DNA of 64,000 bases from an uncultured Gammaproteobacteria bacterium. GTDB lineage: Bacteria; Patescibacteriota; Microgenomatia; Levybacterales; UBA12049. A program made the translations under genes and the position numbers. Position 1 is the stretch's first letter; each line of letters begins with the position of its first letter. Of this stretch, positions 4,147 to 48,832 are shown piece by piece. The stretch spans positions 77,210 to 141,209 of the forward strand of contig CAZDOJ010000001.1 of assembly GCA_964507055.1 (NCBI GenBank), written 5' to 3'. The notes below the pieces were generated by a model. That model did no database searches, was not told where the DNA came from, and was given only the letters and a program-made list of their open reading frames with translations.

Positions 4147-4164
4147 ATTACAAAGGCGTGTACT

Positions 4165-4806: not shown

Positions 4807-4846
4807 TTGTCTTGACTTCTAAAAATGTAAGATCTATACTCCCAAA

Positions 4847-7516
4847 ATGTTAGAGGCAAGTGTACGAGCATACCTAGAAATAAGAAGACTTAAGTTGGAA
4901 GATCGCGAACGATATGGTAATAAAACACGCGAAATGCCAAGAAGAGTACCCATTAATCCGCGTTTATATCATAGGCAATATCAAGTAGATGGTGTAAATA
5001 CTATTACCCAGCTCGCAGATGCTTTATATCATGACAAATATGACTTTCCACAAGCAGGCAGAAAGTTATCTCTTATCGATACAGCAGCAGCAATAGCGGA
5101 TAGTACTAAAGGTACATCCAATATGTGGAAACCTTCAGAAGATGGTAAACCTCAAACCAGTCAACGAGAAGATGATAGCTTACAAGTACATTTTACGGCA
5201 AAAATGTTTCGAGATGCTCTGCGAGTTGTCAGAAAGTTTGGTGCCTCTCAGCAAAATATGGTCTCACCAATTGCTCTTAATGACTTGAATACCTTCCTTA
5301 ATGAACAAATAGATATGCGTGACGAAATATTTGCAGGTATGTATGAAAGCCGTGCACCACAGATAGAACATGTTCACGGTCAAGATCAAGTAATTTCTGA
5401 GGAAGTGAGAAGAGAAGCTCATGTAAAAGGATTACATCGTATTTGGCCATTCAGAGTTAAGCGTGATGACGGAGATCTCCTTATTAGTTATAGTCTCGAT
5501 GGTCTGGTTGGTTGGAAACATGATCGCACTAAAGACGAGGATCCTGACGGATCTGCTCATATTGTCACAATTCGTAAGCAAAAAGGTCAACACTGGCCTC
5601 GTGTGTATGGAAAGAATCCCTCTGCAAAAACTGAAGCACAAGGAAAAGGTCCGATTCTTATTGATGGCAGGGGAAGTGTTGTAGATCAGGTAGATGTAGA
5701 TGGTTGTCAAAAAGTGGAGATCCGTAATATGGACATCCATACAGTATTTGTTGCAGCTGGAGAGGTAGATATTGAAGGTGCAAATATCGATACTATTCGT
5801 ACCGGCAAAAATGGTGTAGCAACAATTGCAGACAGCTCTGTACAAAGTATGTTTGCGTTGTGGGAGGGATCTACATTAAATTGTATGAACACTCCTACAG
5901 GAAAAGTTAAATTGGCTTCAGGAGATTTACTATCAGATGAAAGTGATTTTGGAGTCATTATAGCGACGAGTGGTGCTCATATAAGCGTGAATAAGGGAGA
6001 TGTTGTTAGTTTAGCTGTTGATACACAGACAAAAGTGTCAATTAATGGAGCGGTTGATTATGTTTGTGCTAGCGATGAAGGAACAGAGGTTGGCATTAGT
6101 GACGAATGTGGTTCAATAACTTTTCAAGACAAAGCTACAGGTTGGATTAAAAAAGAGGACGGTACAGATTGGATCTATGTCTCATCAGCTGAGGCACCAT
6201 TTGCTAGGAGTTCGTCTCATGTAAATACATTAGCTGAAGATCCCTTGCAAATTAGTGACGAAATACCTGATCTTGAGTTTGTACGCAGTCAAAAACGTCT
6301 TGGAGCTGTGCGGAAGGTTCTCTCAAATATTCAAGGAATGGTAGTACCAGCTTCTGTTCTTGAAGCGTTAGCGTTCCTTGCTTCTAATAAAGAAGATGAA
6401 CTCACTGAGTTAGCTCCTGGGGCATTACCAGAAATTCGTGCGGAAGGGGTTGATCAAATCGCTGATATAAGAGATTTCGAGTTGCGTGCAGTTCTGCGTA
6501 CACTGAAAGAATATGAACAAGATCCATCATTACCATCAATTGATGGTAATGCATTAAGAAGTTTTATTTCTGAACAGCGAGTATATCAGCTAGAAAAATT
6601 AAGTCGTCTTGCTGAAGGGATGGCTCCTGAAAAGATTGAACATACAGCTGAAGCTATAAAAGAAGCCACACGTGAGGCAAAAGCAAAAGCACGACAAGGT
6701 GGATACAAAGAAAGAAGGTCGCAAAATGCTGACTATAGTTATCACAACAATACAATCGATACTATACATGGTTTTGATCCACCCGTACGTAGTGACAATT
6801 TAACTGTTTTTTATGGTGATCTTACTGTAAGCCATAGTGTGAAAGACGATCCGCCAATTATCTATTCAGTTCAGAAAGACGGAATAAGGAGATATATTAT
6901 TGATGGACAAGGTCGTACATTGCCGGAAATAAGTATTTCAGGTAAAAAAGAGCATGTGATTATCGAGCTTCAATCAATTGATGTGGGTACATTAACTGTA
7001 CGAAGTAAAAATCGTGTTGTCGCAACAGAGGCAAATATTGATACTGTAACGATCCACGAAGGAGGGATGCTTATCGCTAATGATGGAACTATTGGTAATA
7101 TCTCAGCCAAAGGTCCAAGTGCTCGTGTCGAGATCAAAAATACTGACGTCAGTAGTGTAAGTCTTACAGATCAAGCAAGTTTTGTAGGGAGAGGTAGTGA
7201 TATTGGTACACTTCATATCTCTAAAACGGCTCAGGGACAACATGAAGGGGATATTGCTCTTGCGGTGCTTCATGATGGTGGAACCTTGGAGCTTGATGGT
7301 GAGGTCGGACGAATTCTTGGAAAGCAAGATAACGATCCAATGGATCACCTATCAGGCGAGTATGGATTTATTGATCCTAAAAAGCGTATATACCAACCTA
7401 CCTCTAAAGAAACTGCAGAAATGCCAGACCTTTCAGGTCCTACATTTTCGGAAGAGACGACATTAGTAGATTGGACATGGGATGATGACGGACCAGATGT
7501 AAATAAAACTTTATAA
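4847..7516 (+). CDS. 889-aa protein with a repeated beta-helix-like segment; tag family member (ends ...VDWTWDDDGPDVNKTL)
   Basis: Consensus promoter TTGACT(4812-4817)-17-TATACT(4835-4840) with the ATG 7 nt downstream, so leaderless. Two similar segments rich in alternating V/I/T/G/N/D (VDVDGCQKVEIRNMDIHT... and IDVGTLTVRSKNRVVATEANIDTVTIHEGG...). Confidence 0.6.
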   Translation: MLEASVRAYLEIRRLKLEDRERYGNKTREMPRRVPINPRLYHRQYQVDGVNTITQLADALYHDKYDFPQAGRKLSLIDTAAAIADSTKGTSNMWKPSEDGKPQTSQREDDSLQVHFTAKMFRDALRVVRKFGASQQNMVSPIALNDLNTFLNEQIDMRDEIFAGMYESRAPQIEHVHGQDQVISEEVRREAHVKGLHRIWPFRVKRDDGDLLISYSLDGLVGWKHDRTKDEDPDGSAHIVTIRKQKGQHWPRVYGKNPSAKTEAQGKGPILIDGRGSVVDQVDVDGCQKVEIRNMDIHTVFVAAGEVDIEGANIDTIRTGKNGVATIADSSVQSMFALWEGSTLNCMNTPTGKVKLASGDLLSDESDFGVIIATSGAHISVNKGDVVSLAVDTQTKVSINGAVDYVCASDEGTEVGISDECGSITFQDKATGWIKKEDGTDWIYVSSAEAPFARSSSHVNTLAEDPLQISDEIPDLEFVRSQKRLGAVRKVLSNIQGMVVPASVLEALAFLASNKEDELTELAPGALPEIRAEGVDQIADIRDFELRAVLRTLKEYEQDPSLPSIDGNALRSFISEQRVYQLEKLSRLAEGMAPEKIEHTAEAIKEATREAKAKARQGGYKERRSQNADYSYHNNTIDTIHGFDPPVRSDNLTVFYGDLTVSHSVKDDPPIIYSVQKDGIRRYIIDGQGRTLPEISISGKKEHVIIELQSIDVGTLTVRSKNRVVATEANIDTVTIHEGGMLIANDGTIGNISAKGPSARVEIKNTDVSSVSLTDQASFVGRGSDIGTLHISKTAQGQHEGDIALAVLHDGGTLELDGEVGRILGKQDNDPMDHLSGEYGFIDPKKRIYQPTSKETAEMPDLSGPTFSEETTLVDWTWDDDGPDVNKTL

Positions 7517-7521
7517 CTTAT

Positions 7522-8598
7522 ATGACTGAAAGAATTCCCCAAAACGCTCGAGAAAAAGGTAAACCATTTACAATGGTATTATTACAGCATGACAATCGGT
7601 CATTGCATGAACTTGATGCTTTTAAAAATGGATTAGAACAAGCATTATATACGCACCCTCAAGGAAAAATTGTGGCATTTGTTGAATCTCCTAGTGTGCC
7701 TGTGGGTATTAGTTCAGCCGTTGAAGCAGCTCATGCTGCAAGATATACGTTTGATGAATCTTATCGAAAGGCTATTTATGATTACCATTTCCCTCCAGGC
7801 TCTATACAAAGGAGAAATCGCCAGAGGCAACATGAACCTAATGGACATAGTGATCTGACTATCCCGCATGGCTTCTACCGTAGCACATTTGAAACTTTAG
7901 ATGATCTTGATGCTCGGTATAAAGATCCCGAAGGCAAAAGCAGGATTACACTTGTATTAGAAGAGCAATCACCTTATATTCGCCAGCGTGCTATTGATTT
8001 GACGCAAATTGATTTAGCTTCTCATACAGATCCGATTGGAGCACGTAAACAATGGATACAAGAATTCGCGATTTATGAAAATATGCGTACGAATCCCAAT
8101 ATTCAACGCATTACCGATGCGATGGAAGATGAAGATGTGGTGGCTGGTATCGGGTGGATGGGGAAGCTACACACAAAAGTCGCTCAGGGTTTAAGGAAAG
8201 CGGAAGGCGTTGATCAATCAAAGCGTCTTGATGTGACGACAGTTTTTCCAGTTAGAAATGGTGCCAAAGTTTACTTTGATCCCGTCACCAAATTAGTGCG
8301 AGATCAAATGTTTTTTCCTGATCGAGAGATTTCATCCTCAGAGGTCGCTGAAGCATATACGATGAATATGGAAATAGAAGCACAGATCAGAAGAGATAGA
8401 CAAGGTAGGGTTATTCGAAATGGAAGAATTGAGCGATATACTTCTGAAGAACTAGGCCAAAAAGAACAACATTATTTGGGTAAGGCTTATGCATCACGGA
8501 TATCAGCACCTCGGCATTCTGATCCACCACTATCGACTTATACGATTGATTGGGCTGGGACCAATGATCCTTCTGAAGATCCAAAGAAAACCCTCTAA
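7522..8598 (+). CDS. hypothetical protein, tag family member (ends ...IDWAGTNDPSEDPKKTL); paralog of the next gene
   Basis: N-terminus MTER. Internal motif DVVAGIGWMGKLHTKVAQG matches DVIGSVGFLGAVHTGVSQD in the next ORF. Starts 5 nt after the upstream stop. Confidence 0.6.
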   Translation: MTERIPQNAREKGKPFTMVLLQHDNRSLHELDAFKNGLEQALYTHPQGKIVAFVESPSVPVGISSAVEAAHAARYTFDESYRKAIYDYHFPPGSIQRRNRQRQHEPNGHSDLTIPHGFYRSTFETLDDLDARYKDPEGKSRITLVLEEQSPYIRQRAIDLTQIDLASHTDPIGARKQWIQEFAIYENMRTNPNIQRITDAMEDEDVVAGIGWMGKLHTKVAQGLRKAEGVDQSKRLDVTTVFPVRNGAKVYFDPVTKLVRDQMFFPDREISSSEVAEAYTMNMEIEAQIRRDRQGRVIRNGRIERYTSEELGQKEQHYLGKAYASRISAPRHSDPPLSTYTIDWAGTNDPSEDPKKTL

Positions 8599-8709
8599 TT
8601 AGGCCTATAGTTGCAATTGTGCTTTAAAAAGTATATAATCAAAACCAAATAGGACAACCACTGCTAGAGAAGTTGTCCATGAGTAACATCCGTGTTACAA
8701 TACACCATT

Positions 8710-9837
8710 ATGTCAGAGCGATTTAAGCCATTACAACAAAGAGAAACAGAACCGACAGGTCCTGGCCGCAAGCCTGTGGACTTTGTTTTTGTTTCTCATA
8801 ATGCAAACGTAGAAGGTGATCTCGCCCAACTTAGCCAATGGAGTAATCGAATTCGTGAAATGCTTCAAAGTAAATCGACTGGTAAGGTTGTTGTTTTTAT
8901 GGAAGATGAAGGAGCTTCACCTGAGTATTCTCAAGGTGTACGAGAGTATACAGCTATGGGTTTAAATCCTGCAGAGGCAAAGCTCAATGCCCAAATGGAT
9001 CTTATCCCAGATGAACAGTTAGATGATCCTGAAGTTCAGGGTCTTATTGAAGAATCAGAAAGAGATCTTACTACTGGATTTGAAGGTACGGCAAACGCTT
9101 TGCTCGCAAATATTATGCAGGAATTCCCTGGAAGAGTTGATCTCATTCCTGAAGCACAGCCCGAACATATTCGAAATGAACCAATAGATATCGCAACAAT
9201 GTACAATAGCATATTAACAGCTGATCTCCCCGAACAGACAAAGGTTGAGTTGTTTAGAATCCAAAACAAAAAGTTTGCGGAATTGCAAAAGGAGAGAGAA
9301 GGAAATATCTACAATACAATTTCCTTTGCTCTTTTAGACGATGACGTTATTGGTAGTGTTGGATTTTTGGGAGCCGTACATACTGGTGTGAGTCAAGACT
9401 TTGCGACAACCAAAGATGAGAATGGAAATAAAAAGTTTACCTCAGCTCGAGCTTTCCCTGAACAACAAGGGTCAAAGTATAATTTCTCACCCTTCATGAG
9501 TCTTCTTCGAAAACAAATGCGTGACTTAGATGTTGAATTAACTGATGACGAGATTGGTAGTGCGTTCATTATTGAAAGAGATATTCGCGAAAAACAAGAA
9601 GTCTCTGATGCTTTAGGTTTTGACGAAACACGTCAGGCTCAACTTGCTGATGCATACGCTACTTTTCAAGCTATGGGAGATTTTGGAGATTTTACGATTG
9701 GTGATGCTGTGGATCAAGCAAGTACAGGCCATCCTCAATTGGATGCGACAACAGATAGGCCTCTTGAAGAAGCAAATGGTGATGTAGACTGGACAGGCAA
9801 TAATGACCCAGACGAAGGACCCAATCGCACCCTCTAA
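8710..9837 (+). CDS. hypothetical protein, tag family member (ends ...VDWTGNNDPDEGPNRTL); paralog of 7522-8598
   Basis: The longest ORF starts at a GTG at 8692. The ATG at 8710 gives MSERFKP, matching the family's M-[TS]-E-R N-terminus. Promoter TTGCAA(8611-8616)-17-TATAAT(8634-8639) lies upstream. Confidence 0.55.
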   Translation: MSERFKPLQQRETEPTGPGRKPVDFVFVSHNANVEGDLAQLSQWSNRIREMLQSKSTGKVVVFMEDEGASPEYSQGVREYTAMGLNPAEAKLNAQMDLIPDEQLDDPEVQGLIEESERDLTTGFEGTANALLANIMQEFPGRVDLIPEAQPEHIRNEPIDIATMYNSILTADLPEQTKVELFRIQNKKFAELQKEREGNIYNTISFALLDDDVIGSVGFLGAVHTGVSQDFATTKDENGNKKFTSARAFPEQQGSKYNFSPFMSLLRKQMRDLDVELTDDEIGSAFIIERDIREKQEVSDALGFDETRQAQLADAYATFQAMGDFGDFTIGDAVDQASTGHPQLDATTDRPLEEANGDVDWTGNNDPDEGPNRTL

Positions 9838-9859
9838 CTACTAGGAATACATATTCATT

Positions 9860-10525
9860 ATGACAGAACGATCTCAATATATTGGTGGAAGAAGTGGAGG
9901 TATTACTACCTCTATTTTTACAGCTGAATCACGTAGCAAAGGTCAATATACAATTCAAGGGAAGTCTGGAAGATCATTGGATGTTTTTGTTACCAATTCT
10001 GTCGTCCATATCTCATCTGCTGAAGATAGGAAAGTCCTTTTTGCTGCTCATGCAATTAACAATACCTATAATCTCAATATCCGTAATATTGAAGCAAATG
10101 GGCAAAGGCATCCTGATTTGTACCCTGGTCAGTTAGCAAAATATAGCTATGAATTTTTAACAGAGAACGGTATTCCCATGGATGTTATGAATGGGAAATG
10201 GGTTCCGTCGTATGACGGAAAACCTAGTGTGAACTACGAAGCCTATGCTTCAAATCTCTCGGGTACGATAAATCCTACGGTTGAAGACAAAGCAAAAGCA
10301 GCCCAAAATACCTGGACCGGAAGATTAGCAGCATCACTCGGTTATACCGATATTCATCAAATCCTTGAAGGTGAAGGTCAAAGTGGAGAAATGGTTATTG
10401 TCCAATTTATCAAACCTGCACCACTTACTTTGGATGTTGAACTTCCGACATTATTAGAAGCAAATAAAGAGATCGACTGGTCAGGTAAATCCGATATAGT
10501 GGCCTCTTATACAAGATCTCTCTAA
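9860..10525 (+). CDS. hypothetical ~220-aa protein, tag family member; paralog A of a 3-member subfamily
   Basis: MTERSQYIGGRSGGITTSIF...NGQRHPDLYPGQL...KAKAAQNTWTGRLAASLGYT. C-terminal ...IDWSGKSDIVASYTRSL is a degenerate tag. Confidence 0.6.
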   Translation: MTERSQYIGGRSGGITTSIFTAESRSKGQYTIQGKSGRSLDVFVTNSVVHISSAEDRKVLFAAHAINNTYNLNIRNIEANGQRHPDLYPGQLAKYSYEFLTENGIPMDVMNGKWVPSYDGKPSVNYEAYASNLSGTINPTVEDKAKAAQNTWTGRLAASLGYTDIHQILEGEGQSGEMVIVQFIKPAPLTLDVELPTLLEANKEIDWSGKSDIVASYTRSL

Positions 10526-10532
10526 TACGACT

Positions 10533-11204
10533 ATGAAAGAATATCAACACATAGGAGGAAAGCACGGCGGTATAGATACTTCAATCTTTGATCTCCGTTT
10601 GCGTGATAGAGAATACACCGCACGAGCAAGTTCTGGGAGTCGGGTTACTTGTAAAGTAACTGAGAATCAAGTCTGTATCGAATCTGTTGAGGATAAGAAG
10701 ATAGCTTTTGTCGCTACAAATATAGACGGTAATCTTATTTTATATGTGCGTAACACAGATGATCAAGGAAATCGTCACCCTGATATTTACCCAGTACAAT
10801 TGATAGAACATAGTTTTGAATACTTTAATTCACAGGGTAAACCTGTGCAATCAATACAAGGTAGTTGGCTTCCACCAGTTCATGGAGAAAGTAGTGTCAA
10901 TCACACAGAATACACGACACGGTTGGAAGGTCTTACTGATGTGACAGCTGAAGATAGGGCAAAGGCTGCCCAAAATACATGGACAGGAAAAGTTGCAGCA
11001 GCACTTGGGTTTACTGAAGCTAGTGTTATAGAAAGTGAAGGCCTAAATGATACTATTGGTTATGTTGAAGTACAGTTTAGAAAGCCTGAAGAAAAAGTTG
11101 TTGAACATGAAATATCTTCTGAAGATGTCTCTCTGGCTGCTTTAGATGCCACTATTGATTGGGAGGGTGAAGATGCATTACAAGCTCGGTCTAAAGTCTT
11201 ATAA
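10533..11204 (+). CDS. hypothetical ~220-aa protein, tag family member; paralog B
   Basis: MKEYQHIGGKHGGIDTSIF...QGNRHPDIYPVQL...RAKAAQNTWTGKVAAALGFT. C-terminal ...IDWEGEDALQARSKVL is a degenerate tag. Confidence 0.6.
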   Translation: MKEYQHIGGKHGGIDTSIFDLRLRDREYTARASSGSRVTCKVTENQVCIESVEDKKIAFVATNIDGNLILYVRNTDDQGNRHPDIYPVQLIEHSFEYFNSQGKPVQSIQGSWLPPVHGESSVNHTEYTTRLEGLTDVTAEDRAKAAQNTWTGKVAAALGFTEASVIESEGLNDTIGYVEVQFRKPEEKVVEHEISSEDVSLAALDATIDWEGEDALQARSKVL

Positions 11205-11222
11205 CTTATACTAACCCATAGT

Positions 11223-11251
11223 TTGACACATGAGATTTACTGCTGTATAAT
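11223..11251 (+). promoter_or_regulatory. sigma-70 consensus promoter TTGACA-17-TATAAT
   Basis: Exact consensus hexamers with a 17-nt spacer. The ATG at 11261 is 10 nt downstream. Confidence 0.6.
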
Positions 11252-11260
11252 TCCTTTTTT

Positions 11261-12514
11261 ATGACTGAACGAAGACCATATACTGGATTCCAAATGAGGC
11301 CAGACATGATGCACGTATCACAAGATATGGGTGCAGAATATTTCATGCGTGCGGTTGCTACTCCTATGCTTTCAGCTATGCTTCGGGGTCAGGAACAACA
11401 GTTTGGTCCGCAACGAAGTGCAGAAGCTACTCTTGCTGCAGTTAATCTTTCAAAATACGTTCAAAATGAAGGTATCAAAAATGTAGTTCTCTTGGACAGA
11501 AGTGCTCGAACAGCGGCTACTGCTTTGCGTGCGGCATGGGATGATGAGCATCCAGGTGAAAAAAAGCCTTTTAACACATTCTTTATAAATCCTCGTGGAT
11601 TTGCGACAGAAGAAGACCTTTCCGCGGTTGATCCAGAATTTAGAATAGATAGAAGAGAAAGAGAATACCTTGTTGCCATGAATAATCGAGATTTTGTGCA
11701 ACGCCATCCTTCTGGAAGAACAAGTGAACAAATACAAACTGATTTAGCAGAGACGTTCCCATTGCTGGTAGCTGCAAAAGATGAACCTACGTTAATTTTT
11801 GACGTTTGCATACATCAAGGAACATCTGCCAAACCTGTACTTCGTGAATTTAAAGATAGTGGATTTAGTGATTTGCGATTCGGAGTAGCTGGAGATTATG
11901 CAAATCATTCAGGAATTGTACCTGATTTTATTGGTTTACCAGGATTTAGAGAGGATACTTGTATTGTTTTCGGATCGGATTATTCAATGGTAAAACCTTT
12001 TGGAGCAATGACAAGTGACCGAACCGAAAATCCTGATGACCTCAGAGATGGAGCGAGACTTCGAAATAAATTACGAGAGGTAATCAAAGAGACACGTCCT
12101 ATACTTGAAGATTTGGATCGAAGAGAAAAAGTAGTAGCCAAACCATCACCAAAGACAGGAATGGCTTTAGAATTTTTAGCAGATACTACAGGAAGAAATG
12201 GATCAATGGAAGTAAGTGGTGTTTATCGAGAGTTATTGGATTTGGGATTTACTCATATTAGCGATGCGTCTCAAGCTATTAAAGATGGATCTCTATCACA
12301 AGATGTGCTGGGTCGATTAGCAAATACAGTTGATTCTCAAACAGGCGTTGTTCTCTTTCCAGCTTTACGTGATGCTGCAGTCATTGCTATTGAAGAATCA
12401 CAACAGGAAATCGTTACTGATCTATCTTTAGAGCCTTCATTGGCCGAGTCAAATGCTGCAATCGATTGGGACAGTTCCGACGATCCTGATGCCGGTCCAA
12501 GAAGGTCTCTTTAA
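11261..12514 (+). CDS. hypothetical 417-aa protein, tag family member (ends ...IDWDSSDDPDAGPRRSL)
   Basis: Perfect consensus promoter TTGACA(11223-11228)-17-TATAAT(11246-11251) with the ATG 10 nt downstream. N-terminus MTERRPY. Confidence 0.6.
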   Translation: MTERRPYTGFQMRPDMMHVSQDMGAEYFMRAVATPMLSAMLRGQEQQFGPQRSAEATLAAVNLSKYVQNEGIKNVVLLDRSARTAATALRAAWDDEHPGEKKPFNTFFINPRGFATEEDLSAVDPEFRIDRREREYLVAMNNRDFVQRHPSGRTSEQIQTDLAETFPLLVAAKDEPTLIFDVCIHQGTSAKPVLREFKDSGFSDLRFGVAGDYANHSGIVPDFIGLPGFREDTCIVFGSDYSMVKPFGAMTSDRTENPDDLRDGARLRNKLREVIKETRPILEDLDRREKVVAKPSPKTGMALEFLADTTGRNGSMEVSGVYRELLDLGFTHISDASQAIKDGSLSQDVLGRLANTVDSQTGVVLFPALRDAAVIAIEESQQEIVTDLSLEPSLAESNAAIDWDSSDDPDAGPRRSL

Positions 12515-12516
12515 CT

Positions 12517-13245
12517 ATGAAAGAAAGGACTCAATTTATAGGCGGTAAGTCTGGAGGTATTGACGCCGCTGTCTTCAAATCAAGTAAAAACCCTGAATTT
12601 ACTCCGACATGGGGAAAATCTGGTGATTTATTTAACTATCGAACTACACCTGAGAGCATTCACCTATTACATGATGGTGATAATGAAACAGGTTTCTCCG
12701 CTGAGGTTAAAAATGGTGTCCTCAATTTTTGGGTAGATACGAGAGATGAAATGGGAAATCGTCATCCCGATTTATATGCAAAAAAACTCTTTCTGCGTAG
12801 TATACAGTATTTTAAGGATCAGGGAACTGAAGTCCGTACTATTGAAGGTGTTTGGCTAAATTCTGCAATGGGGCTAAGGCGAGATAATCATGATCAGTAC
12901 TATAGATTTCTTAATGGTTTAGAAAAGCCAACAGAGCAAATAACTGACGAAGACAGAAAAAAAGCTGCATTGTCTACTTGGACAGGACACATTGCGACAG
13001 AGTTGGGTTATTCAGAGGTCGCAAGTGTTGTCGAAGAAGTAGAATTTATGAGAGAAGATACCTATGTTGATATTAAAGCACGGTTTGTAAAACCTCAAGA
13101 GAAAAAGCAACAAATTGATTTAGAAGAGGGCATCGCAAGTGATCTGCTGCCTCAATTAGATGACCAATCAATAGGCGACAATAATACAATAATTGATTGG
13201 TCAGGGCAAAATGATTCCGATATCGATCCTCGCAAGACGCTATAG
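12517..13245 (+). CDS. hypothetical 242-aa protein, tag family member; paralog C
   Basis: MKERTQFIGGKSGGIDAAVF...MGNRHPDLYAKKL...RKKAALSTWTGHIATELGYS. Ends ...IDWSGQNDSDIDPRKTL. Confidence 0.6.
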   Translation: MKERTQFIGGKSGGIDAAVFKSSKNPEFTPTWGKSGDLFNYRTTPESIHLLHDGDNETGFSAEVKNGVLNFWVDTRDEMGNRHPDLYAKKLFLRSIQYFKDQGTEVRTIEGVWLNSAMGLRRDNHDQYYRFLNGLEKPTEQITDEDRKKAALSTWTGHIATELGYSEVASVVEEVEFMREDTYVDIKARFVKPQEKKQQIDLEEGIASDLLPQLDDQSIGDNNTIIDWSGQNDSDIDPRKTL

Positions 13246-13286
13246 CTTCGCTTGATTTATCTTATAGTATTTAGTATAATTTCTGA

Positions 13287-14084
13287 ATGGTCGAAAAGGG
13301 AGTAAGAGAAAAAATAAAATTGACGCCAGAACAACGAGAACTCAGAGATATTGCACGGTTTTCTACAATGTTTTCGCAGGGAAGACTCGATTTGCAAAAG
13401 AAATATTTTTATTGGCTTGGGGGAAATGGGTATTTAGATACACTACAATTACCTCAACGGCCACCGGCTTTTATTCAGGAGATGCCTATTCCAGTAAAAC
13501 ATTTTCCAATTCCAGAATCTCAACGTAAAGAATTTAATGAGGTTATGTATCATCATCTCCATAAAATAAAAACACAAACTCCTAATGAAGTCCCTGCAGC
13601 AGAACGGTATACAGACTTGCTTGGTGATATCGCAAAAGATTTAATTTTAAAAGATGATGACTATCAAATAAAGAAAAGGCATGCACGAACTGAAGATCAT
13701 ATGTCTGAGCCGGATGATGCAAATGATCCTCATGCAAGCTTTGTCCGCAAATATATCCTTCTTGGGAAGAAGACTGGAAGTGAGGCGTTTGACCAGCTTT
13801 TTAAAGAAGTTCGTGAAGAAATAATGCCTGATATCGTGGCGGTCCATCAAAAAGTGGACAAATTAACAATTCGGCAAAGCCAGTTATCCAGAATGATCCG
13901 TGGTTGGGAAGATACTCATCCAGGAGAAATATTTGTTCATCCAAATATATTATCACCTGAAGTTGTCGAGCATGAAGTATTTGTCGCAACTTCAGATGAT
14001 GAGCAATTATTAGCATTTGTAGATACATCAATAGATTGGAGTGGTAGCAATGATCTTGATGATGGTCCTCGAAGATCCTTATAA
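13287..14084 (+). CDS. hypothetical 265-aa protein, tag family member (ends ...IDWSGSNDLDDGPRRSL)
   Basis: Promoter TTGATT(13252-13257)-17-TATAAT(13275-13280) with the ATG 7 nt downstream, so leaderless. Confidence 0.6.
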   Translation: MVEKGVREKIKLTPEQRELRDIARFSTMFSQGRLDLQKKYFYWLGGNGYLDTLQLPQRPPAFIQEMPIPVKHFPIPESQRKEFNEVMYHHLHKIKTQTPNEVPAAERYTDLLGDIAKDLILKDDDYQIKKRHARTEDHMSEPDDANDPHASFVRKYILLGKKTGSEAFDQLFKEVREEIMPDIVAVHQKVDKLTIRQSQLSRMIRGWEDTHPGEIFVHPNILSPEVVEHEVFVATSDDEQLLAFVDTSIDWSGSNDLDDGPRRSL

Positions 14085-14145
14085 TGCCTGCTTGAAGCTC
14101 AGCTTATAGTGATATATAATGGCACACACATAATAGATAGTAACG

Positions 14146-15834
14146 ATGACTGAAAGAGCAAAACCAGCAGGTACATCTCATGATAACGCCCGAAGATTTT
14201 TTAGAGAGATGGGCGAGCTTGCAAGAACTGAACCAGATCGTGCACAGCGAAGAGCATTTTTTCGCGACCTAAAACAAGAACCTGAATATCAGCAGGCTCA
14301 AAATATACTTACCTCATCCGTACCCACGGTAGTAGAAAACTTCCCTCAAGTTGAGAAAACTATTCAGGAAGTTGAACCGAATGAGCCACTTTCTGACGCA
14401 GTGATGGGTGGGCTTTTAGCAGCTGTTGGAAATCATGAAGGGAAAGCTTTACTATTAGCTTCAATGCAGCCTGGAATTGGATATAGTTCTACGGATATGC
14501 AAAAAATGACATATGTTGGAGGGAAGAGGTTTTGGAAAGGAAAAACAAATGCTTTTTCTTGGTCTGTAAAGTCTTTTGCACCTATCGGATTGGTCACACG
14601 AGAAATAGTTGATCCTGAGAGAGGACTTGTAGGATATGAATTAACTGAAAGAGGTAATACATTGGGTGTAAGTCTTGCTGGACATGTCCTTGCTTTTTCT
14701 GAAAGACATCCAGAAACTTCCTTAGAAAGAATGCTTAGTGTGACAACATCTTCCAAAAGTCTCGATGCTCATTCTGAGGGTAATCTAGAAGAAGATAATA
14801 AAAGGCGTGCACCGCTTGCTCGCTATAGAATTTTTTCTGAGCTATTGGCAGGTGACTTGCCAGCAAGAAAGGAAGATCTTTTGCAAGGTATAGCTCAAGC
14901 TTATCCTGGAGAGCCAAAAGATAGCATGATGAATCGTTTGACACATCATTTAGATAATCTTTCACGGCATGGAATTATCTCTTACGAAACCACAACCCCA
15001 GATACTCCATTCGCGTTATTTATCCCAGCAAAGAATCGTCCAGAAGAACCTCCACAACCTGATCAGCATAATAAAACACTTATGCAGAGAATAGATGGCA
15101 TTATGCAGCAAAGCGAAACACAAGTATCGCCCAAGGATATATTTAATGCATTAGTCGAACAATATCCAAATTATGCTGAACGTAGTGTTGCTGGTTTGAT
15201 GAATGAAATATCCAGGACTGTACAGCAGTTAGTTCGAAGTGGTCATGTAACACAGATCGGGGAATTTAGTAAAGGAAATCAATCGAGGATAACTTTGACT
15301 GATGATCAAAGAGCTTTGATAAAAGACTTTGTGACAGTTCTCACTGCTTTTCAATCACAAGATCCAGAAATTCTTGCTGCAGGGCACAGAGAAGCTCGAT
15401 CTATTGTCTCTAATCAGGATCGCTTTGGTGCATTAATGATCAAATCAAAAGAGGCTTCCGGTCGTTCAGGTGATAGAAGTAGTCAGCAAACACAAGATGA
15501 GATCGTTGATTACTGCCGTGCACATCCAGAGTGTACAAATAGAGACCTACAAGCTCATTTTCAAGAAGGAGGACGAGTATATACGATAGGCACTATCCGC
15601 GACTTTACTCAATTATTGCGATCAAAAGGTGTACTTAGTTCAGAAGTACGGGGAAAAATATCATATTTTACTGCGAGCGAGGCTCCATTAGACGAAGAGA
15701 CACCTGACGAGAGACCAGTTTCAATAACTATATTTGAAAGTAGAGTCCCCAATGATGAACCTTCACTTGAAGAAATGAATGAAGGTGTAGATTGGGATGG
15801 TACGGATGGTCCTCAGATGGGTAGAACACTCTAA
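14146..15834 (+). CDS. hypothetical 562-aa protein, tag family member (ends ...VDWDGTDGPQMGRTL)
   Basis: Promoter TTGAAG(14092-14097)-17-TATAAT(14115-14120). N-terminus MTERAKP. Last gene of the contiguous array. Confidence 0.6.
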   Translation: MTERAKPAGTSHDNARRFFREMGELARTEPDRAQRRAFFRDLKQEPEYQQAQNILTSSVPTVVENFPQVEKTIQEVEPNEPLSDAVMGGLLAAVGNHEGKALLLASMQPGIGYSSTDMQKMTYVGGKRFWKGKTNAFSWSVKSFAPIGLVTREIVDPERGLVGYELTERGNTLGVSLAGHVLAFSERHPETSLERMLSVTTSSKSLDAHSEGNLEEDNKRRAPLARYRIFSELLAGDLPARKEDLLQGIAQAYPGEPKDSMMNRLTHHLDNLSRHGIISYETTTPDTPFALFIPAKNRPEEPPQPDQHNKTLMQRIDGIMQQSETQVSPKDIFNALVEQYPNYAERSVAGLMNEISRTVQQLVRSGHVTQIGEFSKGNQSRITLTDDQRALIKDFVTVLTAFQSQDPEILAAGHREARSIVSNQDRFGALMIKSKEASGRSGDRSSQQTQDEIVDYCRAHPECTNRDLQAHFQEGGRVYTIGTIRDFTQLLRSKGVLSSEVRGKISYFTASEAPLDEETPDERPVSITIFESRVPNDEPSLEEMNEGVDWDGTDGPQMGRTL

Positions 15835-37697: not shown

Positions 37698-38672
37698 CTA
37701 TTTAACGAAATCTCCAGCATGGCCTGCTTGACCAAATGCTTTCATACGTGCCGCAATCATATCTTTATTTGCAGTTCGTGCTTCAGCTAGATATTCTCGA
37801 GGGTCAAACTTTTCAGGATGTTCTACGAAGAACTTTCTGATAGCAGCAGTGATTGCCAGGCGAGTGTCTGTATCAACATTTACTTTACGGACTCCATGTT
37901 GGATCCCCATTTGAATTTCTGGTACAGGTACACCCCAGGTTGGTTTAATTTGTCCACCGTATTTATTGATTTCTTGTAATAACTCTTGAGGAACACTTGA
38001 TGAGCCGTGCATAACAAGATGTGTATGTGGAAGTCTCTTATGTATTTCGACAATTCGATCCATGACTAATACTGAATGATCCGGTTCTTTTGTGAATTTA
38101 TACACGCCGTGACTTGTTCCAATCGCTACAGCTAAAGCATCAACTCCAGTTTCTTCAACGAATTGCACTGCCTGTTCGGGATCTGTAAGGAAATCACTCT
38201 TCATTTCTCCAGCTCCTGCACCATCCTCGATTCCACCAATAACGCCAAGTTCTGCTTCAACACTTACACCTTTTGCGTGAGCATATGCTACAACTTCCTT
38301 GGTAACTGCTACATTCTCTTCATACGATGCTGGAGTCTTATGATCTGCTTGCAGTGATCCGTCAATCATAACGCTTGTATAACCCATATCGACTGCTGAT
38401 AAACACGCTTCTTTACTTCCATGATCTTGATGTAGAACGGTTGGGATTTCTGGGTAGACTTCCGTAGCTGCAATCATCAAATGATAGAGGAATTTATCGT
38501 TTGCATATGCTCTTGCACCGCGGGAAGCTTGCAGAATAACGGGAGAATTTGTTTCACGTGCAGCATCCATGATGGCTTGGATTTGCTCCATATTGTTCAC
38601 GTTGAATCCACCAACACCATAATTACCTTCAGCTGCTTTATCGAGGAGTTCACGAAGAGTTATTAATGCCAT
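37698..38672 (-). CDS. fba: fructose-bisphosphate aldolase, class II
   Basis: N-terminal [25 protein letters not shown], metal-ligand histidines, and typical length. Confidence 0.8.
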
Positions 38673-38769
38673 GTATGAATCAATAGTACTGGTTTATAGG
38701 TAAAAAATCAAGCACATATTGTAGACCTATAGAGTTGATTTATTAGCCTCAATTGACTATAATTTCAAG

Positions 38770-40041
38770 ATGGAAAGACGAACGCATGATACTTCCCCTA
38801 TACAAAAAGAGAAAGAATCAAGAAATGAAGGCCAATTGACACTTCGTGATTTGGGTTTTCAAGACCGAAAGCATAGTATTGGTTTTGCAAATGCACCAGT
38901 ACGATTACATACTACTATCGATCCAGAAAATGGAAGCAATGTTTTTTTTGTCGCAATTGACTATCCATTGAAAGGGGGAGGGTTATTAGAATTTTTAAGG
39001 GAAGTAAGCCCAATAAAAGGACAAAGCCGTAATGCGGTACTGGATGACTGGGATTTGCCAGATGATGCTAAACGAAAAATGGATCTTGCACATCTCCACC
39101 ATACTCATCAATCAATCCCTGGTTATAGTGAATTTGATGAACATCACAGAGAAAGCTGGATGGATGCGATTTCCGTACGTGGTTACGATGCATATTTTAA
39201 GACACTTAATGAAAGAGTTTATTTTGATACAGAAAAATTCATTCTCGGACAATGGGAAGAACGTGAGGCTGAAATATTTGGTTATCCTCCTTATGACCGC
39301 CAGCATATTCCTGCTTGGATGAATAAAGAACAAGAATTTATTGGTGCTGTCTCTACATACATCCAGAGTCCCAAGAGTCTCAAATTCATGCGTGGTTTGG
39401 ACGAGCTTGAAATGATAGATCCGCAATCAGGTGTCATAGTTGAGGATGGAATAAGGGCAAAATATGAACCCGCTGTTTTTATAAAAACAACTCCTTCGGG
39501 ACTGCATATCGTTGAAAGCCATAGCGGCGTAACTGCTGACATTACTTTGGGGGGAATTGATGATAGAGGATTCTATGATCAAGATGTAACAATGCAATTT
39601 GATGAAGAGTATAGAAGAGATGCATTGTTTCCTGTTATCGCTTGGAAAGAAACAAAGGGTGGAAAAAGATGGTTTCTTTCTCAAGTTGAAATGCAAAGAC
39701 TAATGCCTGCTGATATGCACCAACAAGGAGCAGATGTTGTACTTGGGCGAGTTGGCTTAGCATATTTAGAACAAGATATTGCTGATGGTTTCGACAAAGC
39801 AATGGGATTTCCACAAGTGCCCAACTCTCGACAGGGGATGGGTCTAGCTCAACTCCCAGTTTTAGTGTCAATGCCATCTATTGCCAAATCTCTTTTGTAT
39901 GCAGAGCAAGTTACCGCTTTACAGGAGCATATCTCACAAAGTTCACCGAAATTTGATGCTCCACTCCCATTAGAAAGTGCAAATGTACTTGTAGACTGGT
40001 CGGGAGATAGTGAACCTGATCCAAGGAAAAAGACTCTTTGA
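38770..40041 (+). CDS. hypothetical 423-aa protein, 14th member of the C-terminal-tag family (ends ...VDWSGDSEPDPRKKTL); unlinked to the main array
   Basis: Promoter TTGATT(38735-38740)-17-TATAAT(38758-38763) with the ATG 7 nt downstream. N-terminus MERRTHD. Confidence 0.6.
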   Translation: MERRTHDTSPIQKEKESRNEGQLTLRDLGFQDRKHSIGFANAPVRLHTTIDPENGSNVFFVAIDYPLKGGGLLEFLREVSPIKGQSRNAVLDDWDLPDDAKRKMDLAHLHHTHQSIPGYSEFDEHHRESWMDAISVRGYDAYFKTLNERVYFDTEKFILGQWEEREAEIFGYPPYDRQHIPAWMNKEQEFIGAVSTYIQSPKSLKFMRGLDELEMIDPQSGVIVEDGIRAKYEPAVFIKTTPSGLHIVESHSGVTADITLGGIDDRGFYDQDVTMQFDEEYRRDALFPVIAWKETKGGKRWFLSQVEMQRLMPADMHQQGADVVLGRVGLAYLEQDIADGFDKAMGFPQVPNSRQGMGLAQLPVLVSMPSIAKSLLYAEQVTALQEHISQSSPKFDAPLPLESANVLVDWSGDSEPDPRKKTL

Positions 40042-40047
40042 TCTCAT

Positions 40048-41697
40048 TTACCATTGCTGTTTGAAGTGGTCCTTTTGGAAAGCTGGATTTGGATTTGTCT
40101 TTTTGTGAGGATTAAAGATACCTTTTGGATCAAAAATCTTTTTAGTCTCAGCAAAGAGAGTTAAGATTTTCTTATTAAATTGTAAATGGAGATAGGGAGT
40201 TCGGACGATACCGTCATTATGCTCACCGCTTGTTGAACCTTTATATTCGGCAACAAGTTTGAAAATCTCTTCACTGATTTGCGGAATGAACTTTTGTTCT
40301 TCAGGATTTCGTAAATCGATCAATGGGAATACGTGGAAATTCCCATTTCCCACATGACCTTGCATTGCAGTAATGACAGGATATTTTTTCAAAATTGCCT
40401 TAAACTTTGGTAAAAATTCAGGGAGATATTCTGGCTTTACAGTAACATCATCGATAAAAGGAGCGGAATATCGATCCTTCAATTTTGTTGAAAGTAAACC
40501 AAAACTATCTCTTCTGATTAACCAGTATTTCAACTCTGATTTTTCATTCTTTGCCCATTTCATCTTGAGATCATATGGTTTTAATTTCTCTTCAAGTTCT
40601 TTAATCTTTTTTGCAATCTCATCATAATCGTCTCCGGTAAATTCTGCTTGGATTGTGAGATTTGGAAGTCCGCCAGCCATTTTCATTTTGAATTCAGGAA
40701 GGAATTTAAGCTTTGTTTGGACATCATTCATACCAAGCTTTTTGCCAAATCCTGTGACGTATTTCAATGCGAGATCGAGTGTATAGTCATCATATGTTTC
40801 AAGACTTTCAGGTTTGAACGGCAAAATAACATTTACAATTTCTGCCAAATGAGAAACATCTTTCACATAAAGAATCAACATTTCTGCATGCTTTTTTACT
40901 GGTACAAGTCGTAGATTTGCTTTGGTGGTGATTCCTAGTGTCCCTTGTGCACCGACAAAAAGTTTGGTCAAATCAAAGATCCCTTTTTCTTTGTCGTACA
41001 CATTCCAAAGGTAATATCCAGCGGAGTTCTTTGAAACATCTGGTTTTGCTTTCTTTAGAAGATCATAATGTCGATCGATGAGATTGAATATTTTTCGATA
41101 GAGCTTTCCTTCAAAATCCTGTTGCCTCATTTTCTTTTTGAGTTCAGCAATTGTGAGTGGTTTGATCGTGTATTGTTTGCCATCAGCAAGGACAACTTCC
41201 ATTGAATTGACATAATCCTCTGCTTTTCCATATGCAAGAGATTTTTCACCGCCTGCATTATTTCCGATCATTCCTCCAAGAGCACAGAGTTCACGAGATG
41301 ATGGATATGCAGGGTAGAGGAGTCCATGAGCTAATGTATACTTTTCAAAATCTCGATAATACATACCAGGTTCGATAGTTGCTGAATGTCCATGGAATTC
41401 TGGCTCTCGATTAAAGTATTTCATGAAAGAAACGATAATTGAATTGTTTAAAACACCACCACTCATGTCGGTTCCAGCAGCACGAGGTGTAACATTAAGA
41501 TCGGGATGCTCTTTTTTATGTTTTGCGACAAATGCTACGAGGTTTTGGACATCTTCTTCATCAAGTGGAAAAACGACAACTTGAGGTTTGACCGCATAAA
41601 TACTTCGGTCCATACTATGAACACGAATCGTTTCCTCATCGGTTACGACGTCTCCTTTAATAATCTTTTTTAATTCTTCTAGTAGGGCAGCAGTCAT
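40048..41697 (-). CDS. FAD-linked oxidase (GlcD/D-lactate dehydrogenase-like)
   Basis: FAD-binding PCMH-type domain (PRAAGTDMSGG) and typical length. Confidence 0.65.
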   Translation of the reverse strand: MTAALLEELKKIIKGDVVTDEETIRVHSMDRSIYAVKPQVVVFPLDEEDVQNLVAFVAKHKKEHPDLNVTPRAAGTDMSGGVLNNSIIVSFMKYFNREPEFHGHSATIEPGMYYRDFEKYTLAHGLLYPAYPSSRELCALGGMIGNNAGGEKSLAYGKAEDYVNSMEVVLADGKQYTIKPLTIAELKKKMRQQDFEGKLYRKIFNLIDRHYDLLKKAKPDVSKNSAGYYLWNVYDKEKGIFDLTKLFVGAQGTLGITTKANLRLVPVKKHAEMLILYVKDVSHLAEIVNVILPFKPESLETYDDYTLDLALKYVTGFGKKLGMNDVQTKLKFLPEFKMKMAGGLPNLTIQAEFTGDDYDEIAKKIKELEEKLKPYDLKMKWAKNEKSELKYWLIRRDSFGLLSTKLKDRYSAPFIDDVTVKPEYLPEFLPKFKAILKKYPVITAMQGHVGNGNFHVFPLIDLRNPEEQKFIPQISEEIFKLVAEYKGSTSGEHNDGIVRTPYLHLQFNKKILTLFAETKKIFDPKGIFNPHKKTNPNPAFQKDHFKQQW

Positions 41698-47056: not shown

Positions 47057-48832
47057 ATGGTAGAAAGAATACAAACTCTTGAAAGAGTTACAAATCAAAA
47101 AATAGATCTGTCTGAGAGCAGTGAAAATACACATGCGAAAATGGCGTTTTTACATGCCATGATCGCAGCGAATGATATGCGGCCTACTCCATATCGCAGG
47201 AATACCATTTCAAAACTCGCACCAGAGATGGTTAATACGATAGCAGATACTGCTGAAAGTTTGGGCAAAGAATATACAGATAGATTATTGAAACTTTCGG
47301 ATAAACAAGAATCAGTTTTTACTGATGTTTTTGTACGCCATATACACGGTAATTCAAATATAAAACTTGCGTCTATAGAACAAACTGGTACAACCCAAGC
47401 TACACAACATGAGCATAATGAAGTTCATGAACAGCATTTGCATAATGAAGAGGATGAAAGATCTACCCCAATCATTTCCAGAAAATGGCAAGCTGCAACA
47501 ATTGCGGGAAACGCGTTGATTGGAGCGGCTGAGTTGGCAAGTGGTGGAGGAACAACCTTATCGGTCACTGCAGATGGAATTCATAATGCGGGTGATGCCG
47601 CTACATATTATTTACAGACAGAAAATATTCTCAATCCTTCGTTACCAGAAGAGCGTATAGCACGGAGGAGAAAAATAGCTCATACAATTATTGCTGCTCT
47701 TTCGCTAAGTGTTGCTGTAAAAGCTGGATACGATTTAAGTTTTGATGAAGATATTTCGCACAATCCTACAGCGATATATAGTGCAGGTGCATCGCTTGCT
47801 CTTAATTCATTGTTAATGGCAACACTTTATCGAGGTATCAATCGACGTAGAAAAGAGGGTATTCTCACACCACATGAAAAAGATTTAACAAAACATTTAT
47901 GGGCAATTGACGTTCCGTCAGCGGCACTAGCGGTCGGAGGAGCAGTTGCTCAAAAATATGGCATAGATACTGTTGAACCTATTGCTGCGGTTGCAAGCGG
48001 TTTAGTGGGTGCGTATGCATTTCGTCCTACAGAGAAGAACTTAGAACACGAAAACTGTGTGAAACACGACCACGCTCATCATGATCACGGTCATGGTCAT
48101 ACTACAGAGCCTGTAGATCAGCAGATAGTTGATGATGTCCTTTTTGGAAAACATAGTAGCGGAATAATTAAAAATAGAGAGCAAGTATATAAGGGAAGAC
48201 ATCATCACAAAGAACATATCCCTGAGCATGAAATTTTCACTTTGCCTAAACCAATCGCAAAAAAGAAAAGATCTCAGGCGATTGCAGCCGCGGCATTAGT
48301 CGCAGCTCTAGGGGCGAGTGCATCAAGTTCTGGCAAAGTTGAAGCGGTAAATGCTTCTCTTTTGCCTTCGGATGCTGTAGTTGGTATGCATGCTCCTGAA
48401 CGGACTATGAATAACGGTTTTACTTTTGAACTTCCTCAGCCTGAAACACAAAAAGAATTATTCGCTCATGCAGAAGTCAAAAAGGGTGATACGCAGTGGG
48501 GTTTTGTTGAAAATGCAATCGAATCAGCAGAAGTTACATCTTCACCCGCACTCCAAAATGTATTGGCGGATATTACAGCCTATGAAAATAAAGTCGCTGC
48601 TTCCAATCCAGATAGAATAATTCCAGGACAGGTTTTGAAAGTGCCTTCACAAACAATGATACAAGAAATACAAGAGACGCTAGCTCTTCCTGAAAGTAAT
48701 CCTTCTTTAGCAACTGACCTACAAGAATTAAATGATGCACCTACTATGTCCAAATGGGAAAAGATTAAAAAGAAATTGCCTGTACTTAAGAAGATAAAAG
48801 AATACTTCCTTGGTAAGTATATGAATCGATGA
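47057..48832 (+). CDS. His-rich membrane protein with a C-terminal LysM-like domain
   Basis: Predicted TM segments in the middle, His clusters (HDHAHHDHGHGH, RHHHKEH), and a C-terminal VKKGDTQWGF...IPGQVLKVP LysM-like pattern. Confidence 0.45.
   Translation: MVERIQTLERVTNQKIDLSESSENTHAKMAFLHAMIAANDMRPTPYRRNTISKLAPEMVNTIADTAESLGKEYTDRLLKLSDKQESVFTDVFVRHIHGNSNIKLASIEQTGTTQATQHEHNEVHEQHLHNEEDERSTPIISRKWQAATIAGNALIGAAELASGGGTTLSVTADGIHNAGDAATYYLQTENILNPSLPEERIARRRKIAHTIIAALSLSVAVKAGYDLSFDEDISHNPTAIYSAGASLALNSLLMATLYRGINRRRKEGILTPHEKDLTKHLWAIDVPSAALAVGGAVAQKYGIDTVEPIAAVASGLVGAYAFRPTEKNLEHENCVKHDHAHHDHGHGHTTEPVDQQIVDDVLFGKHSSGIIKNREQVYKGRHHHKEHIPEHEIFTLPKPIAKKKRSQAIAAAALVAALGASASSSGKVEAVNASLLPSDAVVGMHAPERTMNNGFTFELPQPETQKELFAHAEVKKGDTQWGFVENAIESAEVTSSPALQNVLADITAYENKVAASNPDRIIPGQVLKVPSQTMIQEIQETLALPESNPSLATDLQELNDAPTMSKWEKIKKKLPVLKKIKEYFLGKYMNR

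Follow-up and report, generated by a model that had tools for sequence, protein, structure and literature searches.

Within the 64,000-nt stretch of contig CAZDOJ010000001.1 (assembly GCA_964507055.1) analysed here, referred to as the window in the rest of the paper, the open reading frame (ORF) at 38770..40041 on the plus strand codes for an orphan protein, P0001, that ends in a short peptide shared with the products of a distant array of genes. The ORF is intact, starts with ATG and encodes 423 amino acids (aa) with the C-terminal end ...PLESANVLVDWSGDSEPDPRKKTL; the terminal peptide, hereafter the tag, is encoded by 39967..40038 on the same strand. Two minus-strand genes flank it, fba (37698..38672) and a gene coding for an FAD-linked oxidase (40048..41697), the stop codon of which lies 6 nt past that of the ORF. 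The Pfam domains of both flanking genes were confirmed on identical Logan contigs. The array occupies 3..15834 on the plus strand and, by a tag regular expression applied to the ORF list, contains thirteen tagged ORFs, twelve of them complete and one cut by the window edge (3..281). The gene at 38770 is thus the fourteenth tagged gene in the window and lies 22.9 kb from the array end at 15834. These coordinates bear out an earlier note on this DNA, which had described a fourteenth tag-bearing gene about 23 kb from the array, between fba and an FAD oxidase gene both on the opposite strand.

Family and homology searches identified no relative of P0001. No match was found to any Pfam, NCBIfam, PHROG or PADLOC family; for P0001 and nine array proteins, no Pfam family appeared at E up to 0.1. 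A word-indexed homology search of 5.8 billion proteins returned P0001 alone. Neither a signal peptide nor a membrane helix was found, the maximum Kyte-Doolittle value of any 19-mer being 1.26. The AlphaFold single-sequence model was uninformative (predicted local distance difference test, pLDDT, 35), with residues 392-423 modelled as coil at low confidence.

The array in the window is only part of a larger island. Walking upstream on a Logan contig of the same organism (loci L011, L014, L091 and L093) extended the island by about 42-43 kb beyond the window, to a total of roughly 55-60 kb and at least 33 contiguous tagged genes. We aligned 34 tags on their Trp residue, for which one variant has Phe. 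The consensus, [PS]-L-x7-[IV]-D-W-x-G-x2-D-P-D-x-G-P-[RKQ]-[RK]-[ST]-L-COOH, spans about 24 residues and contains a nearly invariant W-x-G tripeptide. The tag stands at the exact C-terminus in all 34 proteins, and the distance from Trp to the C-terminus is 14 residues in 20/34 and 13 in 7/34. P0001 belongs to the latter group: its tag consists of P-L, eight residues ending in V-D, W-S-G, an acidic stretch and P-R-K-K-T-L at the free C-terminus, with Trp 13 residues from the end.

A leave-one-out profile built from the other 33 tags scored P0001 at 23.6 bits, whereas no non-member exceeded 8.4 bits in a decoy set of 9,331 six-frame ORFs drawn from the window and from about 170 related loci. Given this difference, the tag of P0001 is real and far beyond chance. 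A simple regular expression for the tag, searched in six frames, matched only members (the 13 array ORFs and the 38770 gene) among 646 window ORF segments, while its single match among 1,913 ORFs from 73 related loci was a spurious antisense ORF. In the core of the tag (the W-pentapeptide and the last four codons), identity is 64% at codon positions 1 and 2 but only 39% at position 3, so that conservation acts at the level of the peptide rather than of the nucleotide sequence.

Beyond the tag, P0001 has nothing in common with the other tagged proteins. Stripped of its tag, it showed no BLASTP similarity to any of them (E 1e-3 and 1e-4), and the best blastn match between the 38770 locus and the island was 49 nt at 73% identity (E 1.5), located inside the tag only. 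A recent transposed duplication of an array gene, which the earlier note had named as the outcome that would undo its claim, is ruled out by this lack of protein or DNA similarity outside the tag. Together, the 33 full-length tagged proteins represent 19 unrelated families: one of nine members, three of three members and fifteen singletons including P0001. The tag could in principle be without function, left over from repeated tandem duplication with exon-like shuffling in a fast-evolving island, one copy having come to lie at 38770 by chance, and the four paralogue families inside the island would fit such a history. This explanation is hardly credible, as it is at odds with the fifteen tagged singleton families, with the scrambling of synonymous sites while the peptide was kept, with the absence of anything else shared between the 38770 gene and the island and with the invariable position of the tag at the C-terminus. 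The proposal of the earlier note that the tag is a dispersed modular signal and not a duplication artefact is therefore upheld by the lack of similarity outside the tag, the 19 families and the peptide-level conservation. The unlinked gene at 38770 supports it, being genuine, independent of the array genes and in possession of a tag that it either gained or retained; in this gene the tag travels independently of the island, a property expected of a true targeting signal.

That both this tag and its counterpart in a sister genome serve as modular addresses and do not belong to the folds is best supported by a natural swap between the window and its closest relative, OZ246394.1 (GCA_965230895.1). 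The core of the protein encoded at 293..1411 is 32% identical over 328 residues (E 1e-51) to a 406-aa protein of OZ246394.1. The window protein continues into a 46-aa C-terminal tail carrying the tag, while its relative ends 6 residues past the core and instead has an 80-aa N-terminal extension with a motif of its own (see below).

Every listed island protein bears the tag or a close variant except one, P0010, a VirD4-type ATPase of 1250 aa identified by Pfam and NCBIfam searches. Its gene lies inside the island, from about 1.45 kb to about 5.2 kb upstream of the first window position, on the minus strand and divergent from the window array. P0010 matches T4SS-DNA_transf (PF02534) at 5.4e-29 with a score of 101.8 against a cut-off of 20.1 bits, exceeds the cut-offs for TraG-D_C (PF12696) and TrwB_AAD_bind (PF10412), and contains the Walker A and Walker B motifs GPTGQGKS and ALDELP. 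It thus possesses the T4SS-DNA_transf/TrwB nucleotide-binding domain that defines a type IV coupling protein (T4CP). Beyond P0010, nothing with a recognisable machine function was found in the island. One nt downstream of the T4CP gene, on the same strand, lies a gene of 505 aa (L011 2988..4505) whose product ends in the Phe-for-Trp variant of the tag (...DAVDFAGEDEPDQDLPKTL). The two genes are apparently translationally coupled, and the 505-aa protein might act as an adaptor or have a privileged status among the substrates.

No 19-mer above Kyte-Doolittle 1.6 occurs in the 33 full-length tagged proteins, and hence none of the 33 has a Sec signal or a membrane helix; P0001, like known substrates, joins a hydrophilic peptide at its extreme C-terminus to the absence of both. 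Soluble, signal-peptide-free proteins of unrelated families, a peptide pinned to the C-terminus, a VirD4-type ATPase amid their genes and fast turnover together form the pattern expected of type IV secretion system (T4SS) substrates. We thus propose, with a probability of roughly 0.55, that the tag is a lineage-private type IV secretion signal and that the coupling ATPase reads it. The tag, which is carried by at least 34 proteins of about 19 unrelated families and kept by purifying selection on the peptide, would be a modular address. The VirD4-type T4CP would read it together with the free C-terminus at a fixed distance from Trp, as would be expected if the terminal carboxylate were part of the recognised epitope, and would pass the tagged proteins to the Patescibacterial T4SS for delivery out of the cell, their destination probably being a host bacterium. 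The 38770 gene would then code for a dispersed effector of this T4CP-addressed system. Recognition by the T4CP, export and effector function are all inferred from sequence; the tag is most likely an export address, and the tagged proteins are the first candidate secreted effectors for the Levybacteria group.

What is known of T4SSs in this phylum is consistent with such a system. Widespread among Patescibacteria is a T4SS that resembles monoderm (single-membrane) conjugation systems (MPF-FATA class) and has no relaxase. The only species tested so far could not grow as an epibiont without it, and 5,713 Patescibacterial VirD4 homologues were reported, mostly unlinked to virB4 and with no known substrates (PMC12102498). 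However, the T4CP was not essential in Southlakia epibionticum, where it was maybe co-opted for another role (PMC12102498), and this is one of several points that weigh against our proposal. Others concern P0010 itself. Its best NCBIfam match, the VirD4-like CD1115 family of Firmicutes elements (4.6e-20), remains under the cut-off; no N-terminal transmembrane anchor is predicted, the best 19-mer (hydropathy 1.34) being at Walker A; residues 1-640 form a hydrophilic, partly acidic low-complexity N-terminal extension; and a phmmer search against the PDB found no relative. Some Gram-positive T4CPs, such as TraJ of pIP501, also have no membrane anchor. The channel is likewise missing from view, as the roughly 107 kb read of the 1.32-Mb genome showed no gene for VirB4, VirB6 or any other channel component. 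The tag is unlike any described T4SS signal. Its last 20 residues are not net positive as in VirB/D4-type signals: across the 19 members tabulated, they contain 2-8 acidic and 1-3 basic residues and are mostly net acidic, those of P0001 having 4 acidic and 3 basic, and the basic residues of the consensus directly precede the terminal [ST]-L. Finally, tag and P0010 were found in one species-level lineage only, which leaves their co-inheritance without comparative support. A word-indexed search with P0010 (5.8 billion proteins, E 1e-10), in which low-complexity words filled the candidate list, returned P0010 alone.

Several of these points would also suit an address for a non-canonical machine, either the VirD4-like ATPase, soluble and with its large N-terminal extension, co-opted as a stand-alone receptor or unfoldase that feeds another route, or an unseen system such as a type VII secretion system (T7SS)-like FtsK/EssC ATPase or the loading of vesicles or nanotubes. 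P0010 has no membrane helices, Patescibacterial T4CPs are mostly unlinked to virB4 with co-option suggested (PMC12102498), the sister genome pairs its N-terminal motif with a different ATPase so that the pairing is flexible, and the nearly invariant W-x-G of the tag could recall T7SS substrates. We nonetheless consider this unlikely, since no T7SS or other secretion genes occur in the same 107 kb, no WXG100 or LXG Pfam match was found, and P0010 matches T4SS-DNA_transf at 5e-29 and not FtsK/EssC.

The extreme C-terminal site of the tag, with its conserved [RK][RK][TS]L-COOH ending and Trp-to-terminus spacing, would also be compatible with a role inside the cell, either as a degron for ClpXP or a C-terminal processing protease, or as a docking site for a scaffold or chaperone, which would keep the levels of possibly toxic island proteins in check and not export them. 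With basic residues before a hydrophobic end, the tag bears a loose resemblance to C-motif 2 of ClpX (RRKKAI of MuA), and the domain of one of the tagged proteins is that of an ordinary redox enzyme (Pyr_redox). An intracellular role would leave unexplained why a coupling ATPase is the sole machine gene of the island, why 19 unrelated families with effector-like turnover bear the tag and why the motif of the sister genome is N-terminal, and no protease or adaptor gene was seen in the island. We therefore regard it as distinctly improbable.

The opposite ends of the tagged proteins raise another question. P0001 starts with MERR (38770..38781, plus strand), an instance of the N-terminal pattern M-x(0-4)-E-x(0-1)-[RK] present in 23/33 tagged proteins compared to 2/37 untagged window proteins (Fisher P = 1e-8, a value inflated because the pattern was chosen after looking). 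Other tagged proteins start with MTER, MKER or MSNER, and the T4CP starts with MAAERP. This M-x-E-R start may serve as a further element of the signal or may reflect a preference in translation initiation. One of the two untagged window proteins with an E-R start is a 591-aa hypothetical protein encoded at 47057..48832, directly upstream of fur-znuABC; it begins with MVERIQ and has a hydrophobic centre, His-rich stretches and no C-terminal tag. If export depended on such an N-terminal feature, the tag might act only after delivery, by binding a host-cell protein or localising the effectors. The occurrence of the pattern in most tagged proteins and in the T4CP, the N-terminal position of the sister signal and the N-terminal T4SS signals of Legionella (PMC10100965) are in line with this. 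Yet the pattern is 3-5 residues long and was defined after the fact, and a host-binding motif needs no fixed distance from the C-terminus, while that of the tag is fixed in 27/34. A tag acting after delivery would thus come as a surprise to us.

To return to the proposed secretion address, its distribution was examined through the relatives of the organism. With the DHH gene that closely follows the array as the query, 73 genome loci were retrieved, most of them labelled Candidatus Levybacteria, Levyibacteriota or Patescibacteria group, which indicates that the organism is a member of the Levybacteria, within the Patescibacteria or candidate phyla radiation (CPR). Many metagenome-assembled genome records titled 'uncultured Gammaproteobacteria bacterium' (L016, L017, L024, L030 and others) sit among the Levybacteria by DHH identity, and we take these titles to be mislabels. 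No tag-bearing ORF and no P0010 homologue were found within 10 kb beside DHH in the 73 loci. OZ246394.1, whose DHH protein is 93% identical and which is syntenic with the window, was the only DHH-retrieved relative with an array in the same slot. That array consists of at least 13 consecutive genes with no Pfam match (L094 1648..19891 and L016 64..9954). Their products do not carry the C-terminal tag and have in common a motif of about 40 residues at the N-terminus, ...F-[DE]-G...R-S-F-S...G-x-P-P-P-x-R-[RK]-[IV]-V-S-P-D, and the two systems are mutually exclusive in all sequence read. Divergent from the sister array and flanking it lies a minus-strand gene for a P-loop ATPase of 1160 aa (L094 1..1599, first 533 aa seen), which carries the sister N-terminal motif itself. 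The only family matches of the part seen are weak (DUF87, 1.3e-3; SXT TraD coupling protein, 4.7e-5), and no similarity to P0010 could be detected in it. The two genomes share housekeeping proteins at 93-96% identity yet differ almost completely in island contents, which shows a rapid turnover of gene content between sister species of a kind that appears effector-like.

The slot of the dispersed gene has a comparable history. fba and the FAD-linked oxidase gene (37698..41697, minus strand) belong to a conserved tktN-tktC-FADox-fba operon. Of the 80 loci returned by a metagenome scan with the oxidase as a query, the nearest outgroup is metagenome contig L095 (oxidase 72% and Fba 89% identical), in which all four genes lie on one strand and FADox and fba are separated by 9 nt, with no gene in the slot. 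Because the two genes are 9 nt apart in this outgroup, the 38770 gene is an insertion, with a leaderless promoter of its own and on the opposite strand, into a conserved transketolase/FAD-oxidase/aldolase operon. In OZ246394.1, the oxidase of which is 96% identical, the slot is occupied by an unrelated 260-aa gene that is also on the opposite strand and leaderless (BLASTP of the two slot genes, E 0.15). The slot being empty in L095 and filled by unrelated genes in the sister genomes, it was filled by lineage-specific genes within a small clade.

The earlier note expected the genome to hold more members than the window does. The extension of the island to at least 33 contiguous genes upheld this expectation for the island itself, while no second dispersed member was found in a HMMER search of low power. 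In this exhaustive search of 1.84 billion representative proteins, the tag profile derived from the window retrieved 15 proteins at E up to 1e-3, all of them island members or P0001 and none from another organism. A local re-run reproduced the HMMER scores, and only 2 of about 20 true tags on which the profile had not been trained passed the threshold. With about 90% of unseen true tags going undetected by the profile, this negative is weak, and further dispersed members or diverged tags elsewhere are possible. The tag alignment yielded no scored candidates in the word-indexed homology search, and the paralogue family of ORFs 9860, 10533 and 12517 had no relatives in a scan of the contigs of GTDB species representatives, which therefore do not include the source genome.

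Taken as a whole, the two genomes invite a broader and more tentative picture, to which we give somewhat less than even odds. About 4-5% of a 1.3-Mb genome would be a block of at least 33 effectors, plus dispersed genes, with a private zip code read by a dedicated VirD4-like ATPase. In the same slot of the sister genome, a different gene set would be addressed by a zip code at the N-terminus, unrelated to the tag and partnered by another coupling-type ATPase, so that address and reader would have been replaced jointly within a short evolutionary time. If true, the tagged proteins would be the first identifiable substrates, and the tag the first recognisable secretion signal, of a Patescibacterial T4SS. 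A large part of the diversity of bacteria belongs to the Patescibacteria, which are epibionts of other microbes, and the tagged system would be a testable entry point to the cargo of their T4SS. With a short tag of defined sequence and a coupling ATPase linked to it, candidate effectors could be listed directly for each genome and a portable signal would be available for reporter assays, and the tag/ATPase pairs would be a natural example of address-reader co-replacement between sister species.

The 38770 gene is preceded by a sigma-70-type promoter (38735..38763, plus strand, 10 of 12 matches) composed of TTGATT at 38735-38740, a 17-nt spacer and TATAAT at 38758-38763, followed by ttcaag (6 nt) and the ATG, the A of which is the 7th base after the -10 box. 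No Shine-Dalgarno site was found at the start, and the mRNA is predicted to be leaderless. As had been pointed out before, the array gene at 13287 has this layout as well, and in fact both have exactly TTGATT-17-TATAAT-6-ATG. Reading the layout as the mark of a shared regulon is, however, not supported, for a leaderless-like layout occurs in 19/36 untagged window genes and in 6/13 tagged genes. Untagged genes with this layout include DHH, sigma factor, GH18, cytidylyltransferase, rhodanese and fur genes, and the fba promoter reads TTGATT-17-TACTAT. Across the 49 window genes, TAnnnT boxes stand exactly 6 nt before the start codon in 13, compared to about 2 per other distance, strict TATAAT-like boxes lie 6-9 nt before the start in 11, and Shine-Dalgarno-like sequences are rare. 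The layout is thus generic to the transcription and translation starts of this organism and not specific to tagged genes. Many genes of the tagged array are 5-40 nt apart without a ribosome-binding site.

The tagged ORFs of the window, all on the plus strand, are 3..281 (cut), 293..1411, 1495..4146, 4165..4806, 4847..7516, 7522..8598, 8710..9837, 9860..10525, 10533..11204, 11261..12514, 12517..13245, 13287..14084 and 14146..15834. The island sequence read upstream of the window begins with the C-terminus of a 641-aa Pyr_redox enzyme ending in a tag variant, ...VSWDIEAGPEDQDPPKKTL (L093 1..195); this tagged protein has Pyr_redox_2/3 domains and looks like an ordinary redox enzyme, and the island may extend beyond this upstream limit. 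Plus-strand genes of 997, 375, 110, 433, 393, 437, 392, 371 and 347 aa come next, followed by others of 344, 390, 397, 614, 750, 676, 905, 816 and 398 aa. Then come the minus-strand genes of 505 and 1250 aa described above, a gene of 527 aa and the 12 complete genes of the window. Family scans revealed no integrase, relaxase, phage or defence family in the island. Rfam and tRNA scans found nothing in the window, which therefore contains no tRNA-linked integration site. The GC content of the array (40-44%, compared to 34-41% for the rest of the window) gives no clear island signal.

Among the array proteins, Pfam recognised helix-turn-helix (HTH) domains alone, on three or four large members. 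Large tagged proteins of 562, 676, 905 and 614 aa have multiple HTH or sigma-70 region 4-like domains, and the HTH-bearing members are encoded at 14146..15834 of the window, L091 10001..14791 and L093 15774..17618. By their domains, these proteins may be effectors that bind DNA and could reprogram transcription in the host. The window gene 1495..4146 codes for an 883-aa tagged protein, the first ~550 residues of which are an extremely acidic low-complexity region rich in Ser, Thr, Asp and Gly (net charge about -136). The nine-member paralogue family is encoded at 7522..8598 and 8710..9837 of the window, L011 8406..9989, L093 10001..15730 and L091 14840..17290. Its invariant residues are H23, K49, E55, E147, R189, G211-x2-G214-x2-H217 and P243 (numbering of the 7522 protein). 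An AlphaFold model from five sequences (pLDDT 77, predicted template modelling score 0.75) had no significant Foldseek match in the PDB, the best, with a probability of 0.6, being the C-terminal region of the Pasteurella multocida toxin. The family may be a Tiki/EreA/ChaN-like hydrolase, an assignment that is unconfirmed.

Several known classes of terminal peptide were compared with the tag and rejected. Sortase, exosortase or rhombosortase-type signals do not apply, as no hydrophobic segment occurs in or after the tag and no NCBIfam sorting domain matches. Type IX secretion system C-terminal domains, dockerin or EF-hand calcium loops, encapsulin or microcompartment cargo peptides, and the tails of single-stranded DNA-binding proteins or clamp-binding motifs were dismissed because of their length, the lack of a hydrophobic segment or a motif mismatch. 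The type VII WXG100/LXG substrates share the W-x-G tripeptide with the tagged proteins, and in type VII secretion a C-terminal tail is recognised by an FtsK-like ATPase. Here, however, W-x-G lies in a 24-residue tail instead of a helical hairpin, and the ATPase is of the VirD4 type and not EssC/EccC. The tagged proteins were rejected as WXG100/LXG substrates, having no Pfam or NCBIfam match and W-x-G in a short tail.

The signals of VirB/D4 and Dot/Icm substrates, such as the basic tails of Agrobacterium VirE2 and VirF or the Legionella E-block, resemble the tag in being short, hydrophilic, probably unstructured, located at the extreme C-terminus and independent of Sec. The acidic stretch of the tag recalls the Glu-rich E-block of Legionella. 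Unlike the tag, a conserved motif with an almost invariant Trp at a fixed terminal spacing, those signals are defined by composition, and the net charge of the tag is negative, unlike that of Agrobacterium or Bartonella tails.

The X-Tfe effectors of the bacteria-killing T4SS of Xanthomonadales resemble the tagged proteins in that many unrelated cores share one C-terminal module and that their genes are partly dispersed, and they are VirD4 substrates, as we propose for the tagged proteins (PMC8740702). In Xanthomonas, hydrophobic and acidic residues exposed on this conserved module mediate its binding to VirD4, an extreme C-terminus that contains Arg is also required, and the target is another bacterium, as we propose here (PMC8740702). 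The module, XVIPCD, is however a folded domain of ~120 residues with a Gln-rich tail found in >350 proteobacterial species (PMC8740702), whereas the tag is a peptide of ~24 residues from one Levybacteria lineage. In contrast to X-Tfe, no immunity genes are evident here and the T4CP has no membrane anchor. That the tagged proteins are themselves XVIPCD effectors was rejected, as there is no Pfam match and the conserved region covers only ~24 residues.

A further counterpart is the MPF-FATA-like T4SS of Patescibacteria (PMC12102498), which belongs to the same phylum; the resemblance of P0010 to the Firmicutes CD1115-type VirD4 fits a monoderm origin. As for the orphan VirD4 homologues of that survey (PMC12102498), the t4cp gene lies away from recognisable T4SS genes and no relaxase occurs in the sequence read. 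The survey reported neither substrates nor signals (PMC12102498), whereas here a T4CP gene stands inside a block of at least 33 genes whose products share a common terminal peptide, thereby providing a concrete substrate hypothesis in which the larger system would be one of T4CP-addressed effectors.

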